Assembly (NCBI GenBank): GCA_964639595.1
Contig: CAZXEC010000001.1
Location: 390,903-454,902, forward strand
Source: an uncultured Gammaproteobacteria bacterium
Lineage (GTDB): Bacteria > Patescibacteriota > Microgenomatia > CAZXEC01
Direction of reading: 5' to 3'
DNA: 64,000 nt
The position numbers and the translations under genes are program-made. This document shows, in pieces, positions 6,760 to 51,447 of the stretch. The notes beneath the pieces were generated by a model, which searched no databases, was not told where the DNA came from, and was given only the letters and a program-made list of their open reading frames with translations. Numbering within the stretch: position 1 is the stretch's first letter; each line of letters opens with the position of its first letter.

Positions 6760-7953
6760 ATGAAGATTTTAATGATTACCCCCTATTTGCCATATCCCTT
6801 AGTATCAGGTGGCCAAATCAGAACCTATAATCTGCTAAAAAAACTCAAAGATAGACACGAGATCACCTTATTTGCCTTCATCCGTCGTCAGGAAGAAAGG
6901 CAACATGTCTCTCAGTTATCAAAATTTTGTCATAAGATAGTTTTAGTGGAAAGGCGGCCGGCTTGGTCGTTTTTCAATATTAGTATTGCCGGCTTTTCGC
7001 CCTTTCCGTTCATTATTGCCATCTACTACTCCAGGACTGTTAAGAAATTACTGACACAGGAATTAAAAGAGCGAGCTTATGATCTGATTCATGCCGAAAC
7101 GTTTTATACGATGCCTAATTTACCCCGATCAACTGTGCCGATTTTATTGGTTGAACAAACCATTGAATTTTTAGTCTATCAGCATTTTGTTGAGGAACTA
7201 AAAATTTTCTTCTTAAAACCACTGCTGTACCTTGATGTATTAAAAATTAAATTATGGGAAAAGTACTTCTGGCAAAAGGCCAGTCGGGTAGTGGCGATGT
7301 CTCAAGCAGACCAAGAAATTATGAAGCAGACCTCGCCAGGCCTGCAGGTGGATATTGTTCCCAATGGTGTTGATATAGAATTTTTTTCCAGCCAACATAA
7401 AGAAGAAGAGTCGCCCCCCATGATTTTATTTGTTGGCAATTTTAGTTGGTTACAAAACAGAGAAGCCGCTGTAGTGCTGGTTAAAGAGGTTTGGCCATAC
7501 ATTAAAAAGGAAATTCCCGAAGCCAAAATTTGGATTGTAGGCAGGAATCCCAGCGATTCTATCAAGAAATTAGCCAGCGATTCCGTAATTGTCGATGAAT
7601 CGCAAGAAGACATCAGACAAGCGTATAGAAGAGCGAGTATTTTAGTAGCGCCTATCAAAGGCGGAGGTGGAACTCGGTATAAGATTTTAGAAGCTATGGC
7701 ATCAAGGTTGCCTGTTATTACCACTTCCATAGGTATTGAAGGCCTGGATGCCAAGGATGGCAGGGAAGTTATCATTCGCGATGATGCAAAATTAATTGCT
7801 CAAGCAACTGTTGAATTATTAAAAGACAGGACAAAATACCAACAAATTGCCGATTCTGCTCACCTGTTTGTTGCTCAGAAATATAACTGGTCTAATATTG
7901 CCAATAAGCTTGATAGGATCTATCAGGAGGTAGCCAGTGGAAGGGATGCGTAA
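6760..7953 (+). CDS. Glycosyltransferase family 1
   Basis: C-terminal GT1 motifs: GGGGTRYKILEAMASRLPVITTSIGIEGL. The N-terminal half has a GT4-like fold. Confidence 0.75.
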   Translation: MKILMITPYLPYPLVSGGQIRTYNLLKKLKDRHEITLFAFIRRQEERQHVSQLSKFCHKIVLVERRPAWSFFNISIAGFSPFPFIIAIYYSRTVKKLLTQELKERAYDLIHAETFYTMPNLPRSTVPILLVEQTIEFLVYQHFVEELKIFFLKPLLYLDVLKIKLWEKYFWQKASRVVAMSQADQEIMKQTSPGLQVDIVPNGVDIEFFSSQHKEEESPPMILFVGNFSWLQNREAAVVLVKEVWPYIKKEIPEAKIWIVGRNPSDSIKKLASDSVIVDESQEDIRQAYRRASILVAPIKGGGGTRYKILEAMASRLPVITTSIGIEGLDAKDGREVIIRDDAKLIAQATVELLKDRTKYQQIADSAHLFVAQKYNWSNIANKLDRIYQEVASGRDA

Positions 7954-8842
7954 GTTAGCAGTAGTGATTGTTAACTATAAGGCGGGAGACATTCTCCAGG
8001 ATTGCTTAGAAGCTCTCGTAAGACCACAAACTAACCTTGATATGGAGATTTGGGTAGTTGACAATGCTTCCGGTGATGGCAGTCCGGCTATGATCAAAAA
8101 AAAGTTTGCCCAAGTGAAATTAATAGAGAACTCTAGTAACTTGGGTTATGCCAAAGCTAATAATATTGCCCTGAAGCAAATCGACGCCGAGTACGTGCTA
8201 CTTCTTAATCCTGACTGCGTCGTTGATGAAAATACTATATTTTTTATGCTGGGTTTTATGGACAAATACCCCAAAGTGGGCGCATCTACCTGTCTGGTGG
8301 TTTTGGCAGATGGTCAGATTGACTGGGCTTGCCATCGGGGTTTTCCTAGCCCTTGGGCAGCTCTGACATATTTTTTCGGGCTGGAAAGACAATTCCCCAG
8401 AGCCAAATTATTGAGCCAGTACCACCAAACTTATAAAAATCTTAACGAGATACACGAAATTGATTCACCATCAGGGGCGTTTTTTTTAATCAGGAAGCAG
8501 GTGATTGATCAAGTCGGCTTTCTTGATGAGGATTATTTTATGTATGGAGAGGACATTGACTGGTCGTTTAGGGTAAAACAAGCAGGATGGAGAATTATGT
8601 ATATTCCAGAAGTAAAAGCCACACACTACAAAGGTATTTCTTCAGGAATCAAACAACATTCACAGGAGCAATCAACAGCTGATGATGAAACTAAGGTAAG
8701 ATCGACCAAAGCATTCTATGAAGCGATGAAAATTTTTTATCGAAAACATTACCATTCCCGATACTTTTTTCTAGTTAATTGGTTAGTATACTTGGCTATT
8801 GATTATAAATTGAAAAAAGCTTTGTCTGAAATAAGGAATTGA
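7937..8842 (+). CDS. Glycosyltransferase family 2
   Basis: LAVVIVNYKAGDILQDCLEAL...VVDNASGDGS...LLLNPDCVV. An AGGAGG Shine-Dalgarno lies upstream. Confidence 0.75.
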   Translation: MEGMRKLAVVIVNYKAGDILQDCLEALVRPQTNLDMEIWVVDNASGDGSPAMIKKKFAQVKLIENSSNLGYAKANNIALKQIDAEYVLLLNPDCVVDENTIFFMLGFMDKYPKVGASTCLVVLADGQIDWACHRGFPSPWAALTYFFGLERQFPRAKLLSQYHQTYKNLNEIHEIDSPSGAFFLIRKQVIDQVGFLDEDYFMYGEDIDWSFRVKQAGWRIMYIPEVKATHYKGISSGIKQHSQEQSTADDETKVRSTKAFYEAMKIFYRKHYHSRYFFLVNWLVYLAIDYKLKKALSEIRN

Positions 8843-38513: not shown

Positions 38514-38912
38514 TTAACTGGTTTTTGGCAACAGCTCTTCTTTTTTGAGGTTGTCGCCGGCAGAATGAATAGTCACACTGCCGATGTATGGCATAAGAAA
38601 ACCTGTGATATTGCCTTGGGCGTCTCTGGAAAAACTATGATGAAAGTCCAGATTAGTGCCAGTTATAGTCAAATCCTTATCAGCTTCTTTCTCTTGCCAA
38701 AGTCGCCAGCCCTCTGGTGTTCTTCTAGCAATCCAGCCTAAATAAATGGACAAGAACCCCTTTTCTCCCGGACTTTTTTGATCTTTGGCTATTTCTACAT
38801 TAACAATAGGACCCCGAAAGATCTCTCCTGCCTCATGCTGTTCCAGATCCCGGCCCACCAGGCCTCGCAGCTCTTCTGTGATATTGGCCCTGTTCTCTAT
38901 TGTTGGATCCAT
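38514..38912 (-). CDS. Hypothetical protein
   Basis: ORF only; no recognisable motif. Confidence 0.3.
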   Translation of the reverse strand: MDPTIENRANITEELRGLVGRDLEQHEAGEIFRGPIVNVEIAKDQKSPGEKGFLSIYLGWIARRTPEGWRLWQEKEADKDLTITGTNLDFHHSFSRDAQGNITGFLMPYIGSVTIHSAGDNLKKEELLPKTS

Positions 38913-40436: not shown

Positions 40437-41816
40437 ATGGGCTTTGCTGGTAAAAAAGTAGCAGTTTTAGGTTTAGGAATAGAAGGCCTTTCCACTGTGG
40501 AGTGGCTGCAAAAACAGGGAGCTGATATCACAATACTTGATCAGAAGACAGAAGATCAATTAGCAGGAAATGTGGGGGAAAAAATAACCAGTTGGAAGTT
40601 AGAGCCTATTCTGGGACCTAAGTATTTAGATAGTTTAGACCAATTTGATGTGATTGTCAGGTCCCCCGGCATCAGACCGGATTTGCCACCTCTTTTGGCA
40701 GCAGCCAAAAAAGGAGTAAAGATCACCTCTCAAACAAAATTATTTTTCGATTTATGTCAGGCACCGATTATTGGGGTGACAGGTACCAAAGGTAAGGGCA
40801 CCACGGCCACTTTAATTTACGAAATATTAAAAGCCGTCGGTAAAAAAGTTTTTTTAGGCGGAAATATTGGCCGGCCGCCGCTGGATTTTTTGGATGATGT
40901 GACAGGAGATTCCTGGGTGATTCTGGAATTATCCAGTTTTCAGCTGATGGATCTGACCAAAAGCCCCCATATAGGGGTGGTGCTAATGGTGACTAGCGAA
41001 CACTTAGACTGGCATAAGAATACTCAAGAATATTTATCGGCCAAAGAGCCAGTTGTTTCCTACCAGACAAATAACGACTTTGCGGTAATTGCCCAGGATT
41101 ATCCCAACAGTATGTATTATGCTTCCCAAACCAGAGGACAAGTTTTTATCTTTTCCCGCCTTGCCAAAGTTGACCATGGAGTATGGGTAGAAAAAGACAG
41201 TTTTTGGTACAGTGATGGTGATATTAAGCAAAAAATCATGCCGATTGGCGGCGTGGCATTACCGGGCCGACATAATTGGGATAATGTGGCAGCCGCCATT
41301 TGCGTGGCTAAGATTTTATCGATTGACAATAAAGTAATTGGTCGGGCCATTGCCAATTTTAAGGGCTTGGAGCATCGGCTGGAAAAAGTGGCAGAGGTCG
41401 CCGGCGTTACTTATTATAATGATTCTTTTTCCACCACTCCGGAAACTACCATTGCCGCCATTGCCGCTTTTGATCGGCCGGAGATTCTCATTTTAGGCGG
41501 CTCATCCAAAGGATCAGATTTTAGAAAATTAGGTCAGGTTATCAAAAACAGTCAGAACGTCAAAGCCATCATCGGCATAGGAGTGGAATGGCCCACAATT
41601 AAAAAAGCAGTCAGCAGTCAGCTACCAGCTATCAGCTTTATTGAAGATTGCAAAGATATGAAGCAAGTAGTCCAGGCCGCCTCTAAAATTGCTCAACCTG
41701 GCGACGTGGTGTTGCTGTCTCCGGCTTGCGCCAGTTTTGACATGTTCAAAAACTATAAAATTAGGGGTGAACAATTCAAAGAAGAAGTTTTATCATTGAA
41801 GAAGATAAAATCATAG
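40437..41816 (+). CDS. murD: UDP-N-acetylmuramoylalanine--D-glutamate ligase MurD
   Basis: VAVLGLGIEGLS (domain 1) and GVTGTKGKGTT (P-loop). Confidence 0.85.
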   Translation: MGFAGKKVAVLGLGIEGLSTVEWLQKQGADITILDQKTEDQLAGNVGEKITSWKLEPILGPKYLDSLDQFDVIVRSPGIRPDLPPLLAAAKKGVKITSQTKLFFDLCQAPIIGVTGTKGKGTTATLIYEILKAVGKKVFLGGNIGRPPLDFLDDVTGDSWVILELSSFQLMDLTKSPHIGVVLMVTSEHLDWHKNTQEYLSAKEPVVSYQTNNDFAVIAQDYPNSMYYASQTRGQVFIFSRLAKVDHGVWVEKDSFWYSDGDIKQKIMPIGGVALPGRHNWDNVAAAICVAKILSIDNKVIGRAIANFKGLEHRLEKVAEVAGVTYYNDSFSTTPETTIAAIAAFDRPEILILGGSSKGSDFRKLGQVIKNSQNVKAIIGIGVEWPTIKKAVSSQLPAISFIEDCKDMKQVVQAASKIAQPGDVVLLSPACASFDMFKNYKIRGEQFKEEVLSLKKIKS

Positions 41817-41825
41817 ATTAAATAT

Positions 41826-43313
41826 ATGGATCAAATAAAAACTGAAACAACAGAAGTGCAACAGCCAACAGTCGAAGCTTCAAAAGCCTCTGTTGTCGGT
41901 ATTGGTGAGCAGTTTTTGAAAGACCTGCAGGAAAAAGGCTTAGCCTTGCAAACTCCCCTTGAAGTAGTGGGGGAGATTGCTAAGGATTATGCTACTAATG
42001 AGACCGGATCTCCTTCGCTGTTTGAAAAAATCCAGAGCCAAAAAGAAGCGCCTGATGGTTATCTGGTAGGTATTGGCGCCGGCAATGTTTTTTCTATGCT
42101 GGAAGCTTTTCCTGAAGGTCAATTACCCAAGGCCATCTTGCTATTTGATATAAATTATGAGGCAGTCGCGTCCGGTCAGGCATTAATTGAGAAATTAAAG
42201 CGCGGTGAGCCATGTCCTTATACTTCAGCAGTAACTTATACCAATATTGATAAGAATGTTTTTACCGAAGATCTCCCTGCCAATATTAAATTCGCCTGGA
42301 TAAAATATTGGCCTACTCTTACCAAACTTGCTCAAGCAGGAAACCTAGCGATTGCTCAAGTAGATTTTGCCAATCCGGAACTGATGAATCTATTGGCAAA
42401 CCTGCCGCAATTTAAAGATTCCAACAATGTTGTCTATCTTTCCAATATTGCGGATCATATTTGGAGAAGAAAGCCGGTTGTTGTACCTGATCTTGGCTTC
42501 TTAAGGATACTAACGCCTGATTTTCCCCATAACAACTATTATATTGATACTTTACTCTCCAGCCTAGATTATCGCTTAAGAGCCAGTACCCATCCTCCAG
42601 AATTTTCCCGGACTGATTTTTCCGACTTTTTCCAGCCGGTCAGGTTCCAAACCAGGCCGATTGATGAAGTTGATGGCCCTGTTCAAGAAAATCCACTGCG
42701 GGACGATTTACAGTCGTGGACCCTTGAGCATTTGGTTGGTTCGTATACCAGCTTAGATAATTCTAAACGGCACCAAGCGAGGAAGGAATTTATCGGCCGT
42801 CGTATTAGTGAAATGAGGAACAACACCAGAGACACATATGATGAATACAAAAAGCGTCCGCAGTCGGGAAAAGTAACAGATAACATTGAAATAAAATATC
42901 AGTTCCCTGCGGGTCCCGAGGAAGAAGCAAAACTTTTAGAGGAGCTAAGGCAGCCTTACAATTATGATTGCGATTTCATCCCATTTTTAGCAAACTATTT
43001 TTGGGCCAATGCCCAAAGTCCCGAAGAATTTATGATAGAAAAATTACCAGAAGTTTTCTTTAAAGATAGCGCCAGCGGTGCCAGCTATTATATTTACGAT
43101 CCCAGAGCTAGTCAAAAAGGCCGGGTGGAGATAGGTTTGCTTAGAAGCGGTATATATTATGAACAGTTGGCGATGGCCAAAATTTATCAGGAGGTCAAAA
43201 AAAGAGTACTGCAAAAAAATCCCGATATTGATGTATCCGGGAAAACTTTTCCGGAACTGGTTGACCGGCTGCAATTTGGCCGACCGGCCAAAGCTGGGGC
43301 ATCTATGCTATGA
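41826..43313 (+). CDS. Hypothetical 495-aa soluble protein inserted between murD and ftsW; weak Rossmann/SAM-MTase-like N-terminal motif
   Basis: The GYLVGIGAGNVFSML...ILLFDINYEAV pattern resembles MTase motifs I/II. The remainder is unrecognised. Confidence 0.35.
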   Translation: MDQIKTETTEVQQPTVEASKASVVGIGEQFLKDLQEKGLALQTPLEVVGEIAKDYATNETGSPSLFEKIQSQKEAPDGYLVGIGAGNVFSMLEAFPEGQLPKAILLFDINYEAVASGQALIEKLKRGEPCPYTSAVTYTNIDKNVFTEDLPANIKFAWIKYWPTLTKLAQAGNLAIAQVDFANPELMNLLANLPQFKDSNNVVYLSNIADHIWRRKPVVVPDLGFLRILTPDFPHNNYYIDTLLSSLDYRLRASTHPPEFSRTDFSDFFQPVRFQTRPIDEVDGPVQENPLRDDLQSWTLEHLVGSYTSLDNSKRHQARKEFIGRRISEMRNNTRDTYDEYKKRPQSGKVTDNIEIKYQFPAGPEEEAKLLEELRQPYNYDCDFIPFLANYFWANAQSPEEFMIEKLPEVFFKDSASGASYYIYDPRASQKGRVEIGLLRSGIYYEQLAMAKIYQEVKKRVLQKNPDIDVSGKTFPELVDRLQFGRPAKAGASML

Positions 43314-43369
43314 AGACAAGGAAAGAGATTACTTCTAATTTTGTTGTTTACGCATTCCTTATTTTATTC

Positions 43370-43398
43370 TTGCTCAATTTTAACCATAGTACTATAAT
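43370..43398 (+). promoter_or_regulatory. Sigma70-like promoter (TTGCTC-N17-TATAAT) with the ATG 6 nt downstream; predicted leaderless
   Basis: TATAAT at 43393-43398; ATG at 43405. Confidence 0.4.
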
Positions 43399-43404
43399 AT
43401 TGTA

Positions 43405-43791
43405 ATGAGTAAGAAGTCATCTAGCTCATGTTGTTTAGATGTTATTGATTACAATAAGAATAGGATTATATTTCATGAAAAACGCCGTAAGGAAAAAGCG
43501 AATACACACGTAGATTTAGATGATTTAAGTCCGAATGGATTTGTTAAGAAAAGCATACCAGAAGCATTGGTAGATCCAGATGTAATTTGGGAAGACTTGA
43601 CAAACCCCAAGATAAGGAATTATTATAAACTTAACTATTATCAAAAAACAAGATTCTCCAGGTTTAATTTATATACGAAAGTAGTTGTTGGAACATGGGA
43701 CAAACCATGGTTTATATTAACTGCATACCAACCTCAAAACATAAAAGAAGAGAAGGGAGATACTAAAAAATGTCTATACCAAAAGCAATAA
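43405..43791 (+). CDS. Hypothetical small protein in low-GC islet (ends ...WFILTAYQP, reminiscent of small toxin-like families)
   Basis: GC about 30% against ~43% background. It overlaps the next ORF by 22 nt. Confidence 0.35.
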   Translation: MSKKSSSSCCLDVIDYNKNRIIFHEKRRKEKANTHVDLDDLSPNGFVKKSIPEALVDPDVIWEDLTNPKIRNYYKLNYYQKTRFSRFNLYTKVVVGTWDKPWFILTAYQPQNIKEEKGDTKKCLYQKQ

Positions 43792-44213
43792 ACATTATTC
43801 AAAAACTTAATCCTAAAAAACTTAGGGAGAGTATCTATAGGCTTCCAAATATAGCTAGGGAAGAAAAGTGGAGATTATCATATGATAAGTTGATAGATGC
43901 TTTATATTTCACTCCTTCTATTGTTGCCCGAGACGCTGTGTTATTCAATGTAACCAATGAATTTGCTATTTATGTTAATAAAAATTCTAAAATTGAAGGA
44001 TTATTCATTGAAAATTTTAAGGCAAACTTTGTCCGACATAATGCTTCCTTTGAAGAACTACTTGAGGTATTAAACAAAAATATTGATGATATTTATGTTG
44101 CAAGAGATAAAAATAGATCAGAGTTATATGAAAAAGCATTAGAAGCGAATTTTCTAGAACTTATAAATAACAACAATAATTTGTTAACAGGAGCTAAATT
44201 TTTGAGCACATGA
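43770..44213 (+). CDS. Hypothetical protein in low-GC islet
   Basis: Overlapping (coupled) with the upstream ORF; no motif recognised. Confidence 0.35.
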   Translation: MSIPKAINIIQKLNPKKLRESIYRLPNIAREEKWRLSYDKLIDALYFTPSIVARDAVLFNVTNEFAIYVNKNSKIEGLFIENFKANFVRHNASFEELLEVLNKNIDDIYVARDKNRSELYEKALEANFLELINNNNNLLTGAKFLST

Positions 44214-44310
44214 AGACATTCTCTCAATTGAGGAAAAAAGATAACGGATGGAAAGCCTGATTTGAAAAAGGTAGTTGTGATGGTTCTAAAAGGGGTTTAC
44301 AATAGCTTCT

Positions 44311-44499
44311 ATGAAAGTAGATTTTGGATGGCAAATCTTTAGATTTATATTCTTCATATTTTGCTTATTTTTAGGCTATCTGCTTTTAAGAACCTATCAC
44401 GATTCAGGATCTCAAACTGTTATCACTATAGTTTTTGCCTTTGCTTGGCTATATTTCTGGTTAAAAGCCTTCCAGTACATTTCCTACAAAAATCCTTAG
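44311..44499 (+). CDS. Hypothetical small two-TM membrane protein
   Basis: 62 aa with two hydrophobic helices; located in the low-GC islet. Confidence 0.25.
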   Translation: MKVDFGWQIFRFIFFIFCLFLGYLLLRTYHDSGSQTVITIVFAFAWLYFWLKAFQYISYKNP

Positions 44500-44534
44500 T
44501 CGCCACTTTTCCTAAACTTTTTCATTTCTAGCTC

Positions 44535-44563
44535 TTGACAAGGTTTTTAGTCAGTGATATATA
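44535..44563 (+). promoter_or_regulatory. Sigma70-like promoter TTGACA-N17-TATATA
   Basis: TTGACA at 44535-44540 and TATATA at 44558-44563. It is followed within ~40 nt by a terminator hairpin. Confidence 0.4.
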
Positions 44564-44600
44564 AATATTCGACCAAAGCTGGGCAACCAACTTTGAGTCA

Positions 44601-44640
44601 AGAAGCCCATGCGCCTCTAAGGAGTGTGGGCTTCTTTTTT
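44601..44640 (+). terminator. Rho-independent terminator-like hairpin plus T-tract
   Basis: Stem AGAAGCCCA (44601-09) pairs with TGGGCTTCT (44627-35), followed by TTTTTT (44635-40). Confidence 0.45.
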
Positions 44641-44690
44641 GCCTCAAATCCCTAGATTTTAGTATAATAGTTTGGTTCAACAAACCAGCT

Positions 44691-45806
44691 ATGCAATTTT
44701 CCAGACGCAAAAGCCCAAAGTCAGAGCCCAAATTTGCCAAGTCCGCTGACAGCTGGCTGATTGCCTCGGCCTTGGTTTTGACAATATTCGGTCTGGTGAT
44801 GATTTATGACTCTTCTGTGGTGGCGGCACAACGGGATTTTGGCGACCAATACTGGTATGTTAAAAATCAGGCAATTTGGAGTGTGCTGGGAGCCTTGGCT
44901 TTAATTTTAGGTGCTAAAATAGATTATCATCTGTGGAGGAGATGGGCCCTGCCGATTGTGGGTCTGGCCCTGGTGTTACTTTTGGCAGTCCTTATCCCTA
45001 GTCTGTCTTATAGCGCTTATGGCGCTTCCAGGTGGTTAGATTTAGGCGTGGTAAAGTTCCAGCCTTCAGAACTTATTAAAATTGCCTCTATTTTTTACCT
45101 GGCGGCAATATTTGAAAAACGGACCCGCGTTGGCCCATTTATGCTGCTTATTATTTTAGTTACTTTTGTTACTGCCATCCTGCAAAAAGACTTGGGTACT
45201 ACTTTGATATTTTTGTCCATTGCTGCTACTGTCTATTTCATAGCTGGAGCTCCATTATGGCATTTTGCTGTTATGATTCCTTTTGCTCTGGTGACAATTT
45301 TTGGTTTGATAAAATTATTCCCGCATCGTTTGTTGCGCATCACTACTTTTTTTAACAGTTCATCTGATCCTCAAGGGGCCTCATATCACATCAATCAGAT
45401 TTTGATCGCTTTGGGTAGTGGTGGTATATTCGGACTAGGGTTAGGGCAGTCCAGGCAGAAGTTTGGTTATTTACCGGAAGCAACCACTGACTCTATTTTT
45501 GCCATTGTGGCAGAAGAGCTGGGATTTGTTGGCGCCTCGCTGATAATTGGCGTATTATTATTTTTGATTTTTAGAGGATTTATTATAGTCATGAGCGCTC
45601 CAGATAGGTTTGGCAGGTTATTAGGGGCAGGAATAATCAGCTTAATTGGTTTTCAAACCATGATAAATTTATCATCGATGGTGGCACTGGTTCCTCTAAC
45701 CGGGGTGCCTCTGCCATTTATATCATACGGGGGATCAGCTTTGGTTGTTAACCTGGCTGCAGTCGGGATACTGGCTAATATCTCCAAGCAGAAAGAAATT
45801 TCATGA
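44691..45806 (+). CDS. ftsW: SEDS peptidoglycan polymerase/lipid II flippase FtsW
   Basis: Typical SEDS topology and motifs; located between murD and murG. Confidence 0.85.
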   Translation: MQFSRRKSPKSEPKFAKSADSWLIASALVLTIFGLVMIYDSSVVAAQRDFGDQYWYVKNQAIWSVLGALALILGAKIDYHLWRRWALPIVGLALVLLLAVLIPSLSYSAYGASRWLDLGVVKFQPSELIKIASIFYLAAIFEKRTRVGPFMLLIILVTFVTAILQKDLGTTLIFLSIAATVYFIAGAPLWHFAVMIPFALVTIFGLIKLFPHRLLRITTFFNSSSDPQGASYHINQILIALGSGGIFGLGLGQSRQKFGYLPEATTDSIFAIVAEELGFVGASLIIGVLLFLIFRGFIIVMSAPDRFGRLLGAGIISLIGFQTMINLSSMVALVPLTGVPLPFISYGGSALVVNLAAVGILANISKQKEIS

Positions 45807-50666: not shown

Positions 50667-51447
50667 ACATCACACCCTTAGGGTGTGATGTATTTGATGG
50701 TCTAGTGATCCTCATTCTATTAGAAGGTGTTTTAGTTGATCTAATTGTCTTTGGTAGCCGATTTGGTCTTCTGTGAATTTGATAAATTCTTGGGTAGAAG
50801 TAAAATATTTTAAAACAAGATCTTTATTGATGATATCTAAATTATGCTTACCAATGTAGGTAGGAAAAGATGACCATGGATAGTTTTCTAATTGTTTGAT
50901 ATCACTTAAAATAAAAGCAGTAGTAGGGTTTAAATGTATATATCTTACAACATGAATCAATTGGTCACCGCTTTTAATTAATTTTGCCTTGAACATAGTT
51001 TTGAATAAACTTCCGTCACGAGCCGTCCTAACATTAAAATATTTAGCATAGCTGTTCTGAAAGTTACTCATAAAAGTTGATATTCCCCTTGCTCTTACCT
51101 CTTTGATTAGGAAATGGATATGATTTGGCATAAGACAGAAAGCAAGTAACTCTATTTGTTTTTGGCCATTTTTTCTTAAGTTATCCATAAAATCATTTTT
51201 TTGCAAATCAGATAAACGTTTAAAGTAGGAGAACCGTATCTTTACACCTACATAGCTGTAGAATACTAAGACTTGTAAAGCTCTTTGATAGTCCTGCTTA
51301 GTTAAGAATATAGACTGTTGAGCAATACCTCTATTAAATACATGATATATTTGGTCAATCACTAAAGGGGGATTCCTGTATGTCATGATTTAATACTATC
51401 ACACCCTTAGGGTGTGATAGGGGTGTATAGGGTGTGATAGTATTGTC
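50667..51447 (-). mobile_element. Y1-HUH (IS200/RAYT-type) transposase gene bracketed by identical palindromes (REPtron-like unit)
   Basis: Palindrome ACATCACACCC-TTA-GGGTGTGATGT at 50667-50691. Palindrome TATCACACCC-TTA-GGGTGTGATA at 51397-51419, with a partial third copy at 51421-51440. They flank a 224-aa ORF. Confidence 0.55.
50712..51386 (-). CDS. REP-associated tyrosine transposase (RAYT)/IS200-family Y1 HUH transposase
   Basis: N-terminal YHVFNRG (RAYT-type YHV..RGN), the HUH motif LMPNHIHFLI, and the Tyr motif VRYIHLNP. Confidence 0.6.
   Translation of the reverse strand: MTYRNPPLVIDQIYHVFNRGIAQQSIFLTKQDYQRALQVLVFYSYVGVKIRFSYFKRLSDLQKNDFMDNLRKNGQKQIELLAFCLMPNHIHFLIKEVRARGISTFMSNFQNSYAKYFNVRTARDGSLFKTMFKAKLIKSGDQLIHVVRYIHLNPTTAFILSDIKQLENYPWSSFPTYIGKHNLDIINKDLVLKYFTSTQEFIKFTEDQIGYQRQLDQLKHLLIE

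Follow-up and report, generated by a model that had tools for sequence, protein, structure and literature searches.

The slot between the division and cell-wall (dcw) genes murD and ftsW in a 64-kb stretch of contig CAZXEC010000001.1 (this whole stretch is hereafter called the window) holds four open reading frames (ORFs), which are listed at NCBI as hypothetical proteins. The DNA comes from a metagenome-assembled genome of Candidatus Daviesbacteria, a member of the Microgenomates within the Candidate Phyla Radiation (CPR). We consider it likely that the slot is a permissive site for cargo, occupied by a gene for a protein with a methyltransferase fold and by a recently acquired AT-rich islet with a toxin–antitoxin (TA) module whose toxin is predicted to be of the BECR type. 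The slot is variable, permissive cargo space and not conserved dcw content, because the close relative available for comparison carries a different gene there.

All four ORFs that a first-pass annotation, made from the sequence alone, had placed between murD and ftsW are present where it put them. The features of the slot and its flanks are as follows (aa, amino acids):

40437–41816, murD, left flank of the slot, with Mur_ligase domains
41826–43313, + strand, 495-aa ORF (HY388_01895), starting 9 nt past the murD stop codon
43314–44530 (approximate), no strand, low-GC islet, about 30% GC against 41% in the host, holding the candidate toxin–antitoxin pair and the 62-aa ORF
43405–43791, + strand, 128-aa ORF (HY388_01890), predicted BECR-fold endoribonuclease toxin
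43770–44213, + strand, 147-aa ORF (HY388_01885), partner and presumed antitoxin, overlapping the 128-aa ORF by 22 nt
44311–44499, + strand, 62-aa ORF (HY388_01880) with two transmembrane-like segments
44691–45806, ftsW, right flank of the slot, FTSW_RODA_SPOVE (E 4e-98)

Comparison of the slot with related loci

The first-pass annotation had taken murD and ftsW to be normally adjacent. This is true of most loci that we fetched, as a gap of only 14–150 nt separates the two genes in 23 of the 26 loci with a MurD-like match upstream of ftsW. In CPR bacteria, however, the junction is looser. In a Nealsonbacteria locus (L028), for example, a 224-aa gene (7316–7990) lies in between, for which no Pfam match was found.

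A scan of genome contigs with FtsW was saturated by a universal motif and returned only distant relatives (at most 45% identity), and a scan with MurG for syntenic relatives returned one, at 27% identity. The sole usable close relative is a contig from another sample (L093), which was found via the 90% cluster of FtsW. Its DNA is 86% identical to that of the window in ftsW and 78% identical in murD. The slot of L093 contains neither the islet nor the 495-aa gene; in their place stands one unrelated 400-aa ORF (1299–2501) with a kinase-like signature (HxDxxxxN...DWG) and weak matches to the Kdo and Pkinase models of Pfam (E ~2e-3). Homology between the two contigs stops at the 3′ end of murD and restarts at about 44536–44563, approximately 130–155 nt upstream of ftsW. 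Because of this break, the islet and, with it, the 495-aa gene can be regarded as strain-specific cargo.

The murD end of L093 has a peculiar structure. After the real stop codon of murD and ahead of the cargo gene, there are three tandem degenerate copies of the 3′-terminal coding part of murD (1101–1282). These relics lie in differing frames (K[DH]RG.[QE]F[KR]...), and the last copy is the nearest to the murD tail of the window. Their presence suggests that recombination, or an exchange of cassettes, took place at the murD end repeatedly.

The 128-aa toxin candidate

From sequence comparison, the 128-aa protein is predicted to be a BECR-fold RNase toxin of a branch located between PBECR2 and DUF4258. 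A profile search of 1.84e9 representative proteins revealed 54 relatives. Among the 51 that were aligned, 27 match PBECR2 (E ≤ 0.01, best 2.2e-8), nine match DUF4258 and one matches MuF_C weakly. PBECR2 is also the sole consistent Pfam match in the close homologues (six of eight, with the query's own database entry included), which share 53–70% identity.

The alignment of the 51 relatives points to a conserved set of polar residues. Column 35 is always H or R (H40/R11) and column 106 always T or S (T44/S7). Position 31 is occupied by K or H (K32/H17) and K92 is found in 45 sequences; K/H31, K92 and Y74 are nearly invariant. K31, H35, K92 and T106 are therefore named here as putative catalytic residues. 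The active site of PBECR proteins comprises a His within the N-terminal helix together with a C-terminal Thr or Ser, with Arg in one family (Iyer et al., PMC5512222). The combination of H/R35 and T/S106 fits this description, the placement on helix and strand being taken from a low-confidence model, and the family pattern also fits the branch termed colicin-like in a recent classification of BECR proteins. The C-terminal segment (ILTAY), which had been called toxin-like on first inspection, corresponds to the conserved catalytic-strand motif of the RelE/DUF4258/PBECR-type (BECR) clade.

The protein resembles each of the two known families in part. With PBECR2 (PF18810, the phage-type BECR RNases of Iyer et al. 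2017) it is collinear over residues 48–115, and it shares the N-terminal H/R and the T/S on the C-terminal strand. Unlike PBECR2, the 128-aa family is stand-alone, is paired with a downstream partner and resides in cellular (CPR-like) contigs. It has no MuF, portal or polyvalent fusions, and we found no relative in IMG/VR viral contigs, GenBank phages or PLSDB plasmids. The 54 relatives are stand-alone proteins of about 110–140 aa, the exceptions being a few fragments (38–107 aa), P0059 (158 aa) and an apparent chimera, P0065 (219 aa). In P0065, the N-terminal part of the toxin is joined to a helicase- or restriction-enzyme-like segment with a GSGKT motif, which may be a fusion or an artefact of assembly or frameshift.

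Like DUF4258 (PF14076; RelE/ParE-BECR superfamily, colicin-like branch), the 128-aa protein is a small solo BECR toxin candidate from a bicistronic module, and both are experimentally uncharacterised. In a published list (PMC11980606), DUF4258 appears among the type II TA toxin families, with unknown target and no experimental work. The two differ in gene order, which is listed as antitoxin–toxin for DUF4258 and is toxin–antitoxin here. They also differ in the second protein: the reported partners or fusions of DUF4258 are MqsA-like or HicB-like, whereas the partner here is a novel protein of 145–150 aa.

The 147-aa partner and the two-gene module

A partner of 125–151 aa that is homologous to the 147-aa ORF, overlapping or closely adjacent, follows every toxin homologue that lies on a sufficiently long contig. 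The overlap of 19–22 nt is kept in loci L003, L007 and L010. Across divergent loci the 128- and 147-aa ORFs retain 44–70% protein identity, with equal lengths and overlap, and similarity between the window and the other pair loci, at both the DNA and the protein level, is confined to 43411–44221, that is, to the two genes. The neighbourhoods vary: SET, GNAT and SLFN genes in L003–L006, a separate context in L007–L009, an IS1595 transposase in L010, and a place between Flavin_Reduct and DUF4202/NUDIX genes in L100 and L101. In total, at least five unrelated genomic contexts contain the pair, and all homologues lie outside dcw clusters. The overlapping ORFs, suspected from the start to be of toxin–antitoxin type, thus behave as a mobile two-gene module, in which the pairing is kept while the contexts are unrelated.

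We infer from this arrangement that the 147-aa protein is the cognate partner and antitoxin. A distant relative, P0060, contains the N-terminal parts of both toxin and partner in one ORF (hhalign 98.2%, E 5e-14; a frameshift artefact is possible), which links the two families functionally. PDB profile searches with the toxin and partner families gave chance matches only. An assignment of the partner to DUF2283 (PF10049) is not claimed, as one of six partners matched it (E 0.24, 12 bits versus a gathering threshold of 23) and only through the YDxxxDxLY motif (residues 34–50 of the L010 partner). DUF2283 is, we assume, associated with DUF4258.

The module is similar in layout to HigBA, MqsRA and BrnTA, toxin-first type II TA systems with BECR toxins: the toxin gene comes first, the antitoxin is larger or of similar size, and the two are translationally coupled. 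The antitoxins of those systems carry a helix-turn-helix (HTH), zinc-ribbon/HTH or ribbon-helix-helix (RHH) DNA-binding domain, and none is detectable in the 147-aa partner.

Two signals in the DNA bear on expression of the pair:

43370–43398, + strand, putative promoter of the pair as read from the sequence, with −35 TTGCTC (43370–43375), a 17-nt spacer and −10 TATAAT (43393–43398)
43755–43759, + strand, Shine–Dalgarno sequence GGGAG of the partner, inside the toxin gene and 10 nt before the partner ATG

The −10 box is perfect and ends 6 nt before the ATG of the toxin. Because the start codon follows so closely, the toxin mRNA is probably leaderless. The −35 box is weak (3 of 6 consensus positions), so the promoter falls below the threshold of the consensus scan. 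Of the leaderless-type promoter proposed in the first-pass annotation, the −10 part just upstream of the ATG was borne out, while the −35 part is poor and the scan missed it. The GGGAG sequence and the gene overlap suggest that the antitoxin is translationally coupled to the toxin.

The 62-aa ORF, which lies downstream of the pair, has two Kyte–Doolittle peaks above 2.1 and forms a singleton cluster. No homologue was found in any fetched locus (tblastn, tblastx) or beside other copies of the pair. It may be real or spurious, or may encode a small membrane peptide, and it is probably not part of the TA module.

Composition of the islet

The GC content drops to 0.267–0.33 over approximately 43314–44530 (300-nt windows), against a mean of 0.411 (standard deviation 0.040) for the whole window, and this is the minimum of the entire 64 kb. 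The low-GC stretch reported after the 495-aa gene is therefore a real dip in the GC profile, although its length is about 1.2 kb and not 1.4 kb. For individual genes, the GC content is 0.315 (128-aa ORF), 0.284 (147-aa ORF, with 0.21 at third codon positions) and 0.317 (62-aa ORF), while both murD and ftsW have 0.43. The 495-aa gene stands outside the low-GC islet because its composition is host-like (0.425).

At other loci, the toxin–partner pair has 32–35% GC in hosts with 32–39% GC. A pair of about 30% GC in a 41% host, with 32–35% elsewhere, fits recent acquisition from a donor of lower GC content. Its foreign composition and its absence from L093 support the earlier suggestion that the islet was acquired horizontally. 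The idea that the 495-aa gene and the islet form one unit was not upheld, as their compositions differ and they do not co-occur elsewhere.

A 14-nt direct repeat (D7, 13 of 14 positions identical; CGGCCAAAGCTGGG / CGACCAAAGCTGGG) brackets the islet at 43285–43298 and 44570–44583. Its left copy falls within the final codons of the 495-aa gene, and its right copy is situated where the conserved element ahead of ftsW begins. We rejected D7 as a target-site duplication, since chance alone would produce approximately 0.2 repeats of this kind and the right copy lies within DNA shared with L093.

In four other assemblies of the same strain (L094–L097), contigs end in the islet or at its edge, at window positions 43336, 43630, 43897 and 44609. 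These breaks are compatible with strain heterogeneity or repeats, or equally with low coverage of AT-rich DNA.

The 495-aa protein

We take the 495-aa protein to be a stand-alone cytosolic enzyme with the fold of class-I S-adenosylmethionine (SAM) methyltransferases, and its activity is presumably that of a methyltransferase. The AlphaFold2 model (predicted local distance difference test, pLDDT, 81.6; predicted template modelling score 0.81) divides the protein into two domains:

residues ~75–255, N-terminal class-I SAM-methyltransferase-like Rossmann domain
following the Rossmann domain, C-terminal alpha/beta domain, for which no counterpart was identified

Within the first of them, the order of strands and helices over residues 80–254 is that of the class-I methyltransferase core (beta-alpha-beta). 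A Foldseek search of the PDB with the model placed an uncharacterised Leptospira protein (6ulo) first, followed by many SAM-dependent methyltransferases (NNMT, COMT, Trm8/METTL1 and RmtC), with probabilities of 0.8–1.0. In BFVD, the matches include several annotated methyltransferases, and the two best are uncharacterised phage proteins. Methyltransferases predominate among the matches in both libraries.

The family is very rare: 11 members, with 38–47% identity, were found among the 5.8e9 proteins searched. G82 and G84, which form the GxG after beta1, are present in 10 of 10 sequences that cover them, and D108, which closes beta2, is invariant (11 of 11). N207 and D210 are invariant or nearly so, and the beta4 segment 'NNVVYLSNIADH' is conserved. 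The Rossmann/methyltransferase-like motif noticed at first reading is thus backed by the model and the Foldseek matches as well as by conservation of the GxG and the acidic end of beta2. One homologue (P0005) exceeds the threshold of Pfam DUF7790 (26.9 versus 23 bits), and two more match it weakly and collinearly. A likeness of the family to oligopeptide-binding proteins (PDB profile search, E 0.012) is weak and local and was judged to be noise.

The model has in common with class-I SAM methyltransferases (NNMT/PNMT-type, COMT, Trm8), DUF7790 and PDB 6ulo a Rossmann-like alpha/beta core, the Gly-rich loop and D108. It departs from class-I SAM methyltransferases in an insertion of about 45 residues between beta2/alphaB and beta3 and in a 240-residue C-terminal domain.

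The 495-aa gene is probably co-transcribed with murD, as the gap between them is only 9 nt. Its homologues were located in four cases, in four different neighbourhoods, none of them a dcw cluster. Directly after one of these homologues, in L092 (2555–3116), lies a different TA module that consists of a RelB/RHH antitoxin and a YafQ toxin. The occurrence of TA modules downstream of this gene family may be a coincidence.

The conserved element upstream of ftsW

Two further features lie at the right-hand border of the slot:

44564–44645, + strand, conserved non-coding element with two hairpins, the second being a terminator-like stem followed by a T-run
44639–44668, + strand, sigma-70-like promoter of ftsW, TTGCCT-18-TATAAT, with 10 of 12 positions in the consensus scan and the −10 region kept in L093

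The element is identical to L093 at 81 of 82 nt, against 78–86% in the coding flanks, and the sole difference changes a U·G pair to U-A. Its folding has a minimum free energy of −36.5 kcal/mol (z −5.6) and it contains an inverted repeat (I3). A conserved TTGACA precedes the second hairpin (region 44564–44657). We found no Rfam match for the element, a covariance model built from its two copies revealed no further copy in 64 sources, and an exact 21-mer had no match in JGI metagenomes. Its role could be that of a small RNA or of an ftsW attenuator. Cargo inserted upstream of the terminator-like element would leave the expression of ftsW undisturbed, which is a plausible reason why the slot is permissive.

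Proposed explanation and its alternatives

Taken as a whole, the data can be explained as follows. The slot between murD and the terminator-like hairpin with the ftsW promoter would hold independent cargo with no role in division. Its resident gene, of host composition, would encode a rare cytosolic protein whose N-terminal half adopts the class-I SAM-methyltransferase fold. The AT-rich islet, acquired more recently, would bring in a type II TA module with the toxin gene in first place. In this module, the 128-aa protein, from the PBECR2/DUF4258 (colicin-D-like) clade, would act as a metal-independent BECR-fold endoribonuclease and would be bound and neutralised by the translationally coupled 147-aa partner. 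Loss of the module, or degradation of the antitoxin under stress or phage attack, would then allow the toxin to arrest translation. The reading of the pair as a horizontally acquired addiction or defence cassette, which the first-pass annotation had put forward, is supported, with RNase activity, toxicity and neutralisation being presumed properties of the pair.

Several results weigh against this explanation. The comparison of presence and absence depends on a single close relative. There is no recombinase gene (integrase or transposase) within 41817–44690, and no convincing att repeats or target-site duplication flank the islet. The match of the 128-aa protein to PBECR2 (E 5.2e-5, 23.9 bits) stays below the Pfam gathering threshold of 27.1 bits. 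The AlphaFold2 model of the toxin, built from an alignment of eight sequences, is unusable (pLDDT 39), so the BECR fold lacks structural confirmation. PADLOC, PHROGs and NCBIfam match none of the four ORFs. The 147-aa protein and its family have no match in Pfam or the PDB either, nor any antitoxin or DNA-binding domain of the HTH, RHH, AbrB or Phd kinds. Likewise, the 495-aa protein matches nothing in Pfam, including its methyltransferase models, and the E-values of its Foldseek matches are modest (6.5e-4 to 3e-2).

It is conceivable, though rather doubtful, that the pair is primarily an anti-phage module of the abortive-infection or defence type, in which infection, and not gene loss, frees the RNase and thereby kills or arrests the infected cell. 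BECR RNases are common effectors of conflict systems (PMC5512222; PMC11980606), and in L003–L005 the pair adjoins a SLFN_AlbA_2/HATPase_c_4 gene, which is a typical neighbour in defence islands. On the other hand, the PADLOC models recognise none of the four ORFs, and the contexts in L007, L010 and L100 contain no defence genes. Such a role and the TA explanation given above are not mechanistically exclusive. An improbable alternative would make the 128-aa protein a remnant or solo copy of a PBECR effector from a phage, accompanied by the protein that confers immunity or inhibits it, and the islet a decayed fragment of a prophage or satellite. PBECR2, the best Pfam relative, was first described from polyvalent proteins and solo genes of phages (PMC5512222), and one member of the family weakly matches MuF_C. 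Against a phage origin stand the lack of relatives in IMG/VR, GenBank phages and PLSDB, the five contexts of the pair without phage genes, and the fact that nearly all family members are short stand-alone proteins.

The position between murD and ftsW could also be taken to mean that the genes belong to the dcw operon and encode factors for division or the cell wall that are specific to the lineage, such as a methyltransferase of peptidoglycan precursors with small regulators of FtsW. The 495-aa gene, with its short distance to murD, host-like GC content and probable co-transcription, would suit such a role. We nevertheless consider it very unlikely, as the four 495-aa homologues occupy four contexts outside dcw, the homologues of the pair are all found outside dcw, and L093, with 86% identical ftsW DNA, has the unrelated kinase-like gene in the slot. 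For these reasons the novel division-associated factor that the first-pass annotation had offered as an alternative is not supported. The least probable reading of all is that the small ORFs arose by chance in AT-rich intergenic DNA. It would accommodate the 62-aa ORF, a singleton without homologues, but AT-rich DNA seldom gives long ORFs, and the ORFs of the pair are conserved at 44–70% identity with equal lengths and overlap and with 54 representatives in 1.84e9 proteins. For the 128/147-aa pair, a chance origin is effectively rejected.

Implications

If the cargo-slot explanation is correct, strain-specific cargo can be accommodated at a defined site even in the highly conserved division and cell-wall cluster of a reduced CPR genome. 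A conserved terminator-like element, together with ftsW's own promoter, would insulate this site from ftsW. To our knowledge, almost no TA systems from the CPR have been characterised. The pair is a concrete TA candidate from this group, with a predicted toxin of the BECR subfamily PBECR2/DUF4258 and with a partner of a family that has not been described so far. The 495-aa protein adds a very rare family with a methyltransferase fold. Current understanding is not overturned by these findings, which are of use for annotation and as a source of candidate reagents.

Among the by-products of the analysis, the hotspot architecture stands out as more unusual, as does the element conserved upstream of ftsW. 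As a speculation to which we give little weight, the murD 3′ end and the hairpin element may define a lineage-specific hotspot of cassette exchange in the Daviesbacteria division cluster, where unrelated cargo is swapped in repeatedly without a recombinase, every arrival bringing a murD 3′ end along. The methyltransferase-like gene with the TA islet in the window and the kinase-like gene in L093 would be such cargoes, and the three murD-tail relics that stand in tandem in L093 agree with this picture. Equally tentative is the thought that the 82-nt element may be a new small RNA or attenuator of ftsW, and that the partner may found a new antitoxin family.

Other genes in the window

Upstream of mraY, a 132-aa ORF (38514–38912, − strand) lies between a FemAB-like gene and a diacylglycerol-kinase-like gene. 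No Pfam model matches it, and another assembly (L094) has it annotated as a gene. Directly after ftsZ comes a second patch of low GC content (below 0.32), which encodes a 224-aa IS200-like Y1 transposase (50712–51386, − strand; Pfam Y1_Tnp, E 2.6e-9), a further mobile gene on the margin of the dcw cluster.

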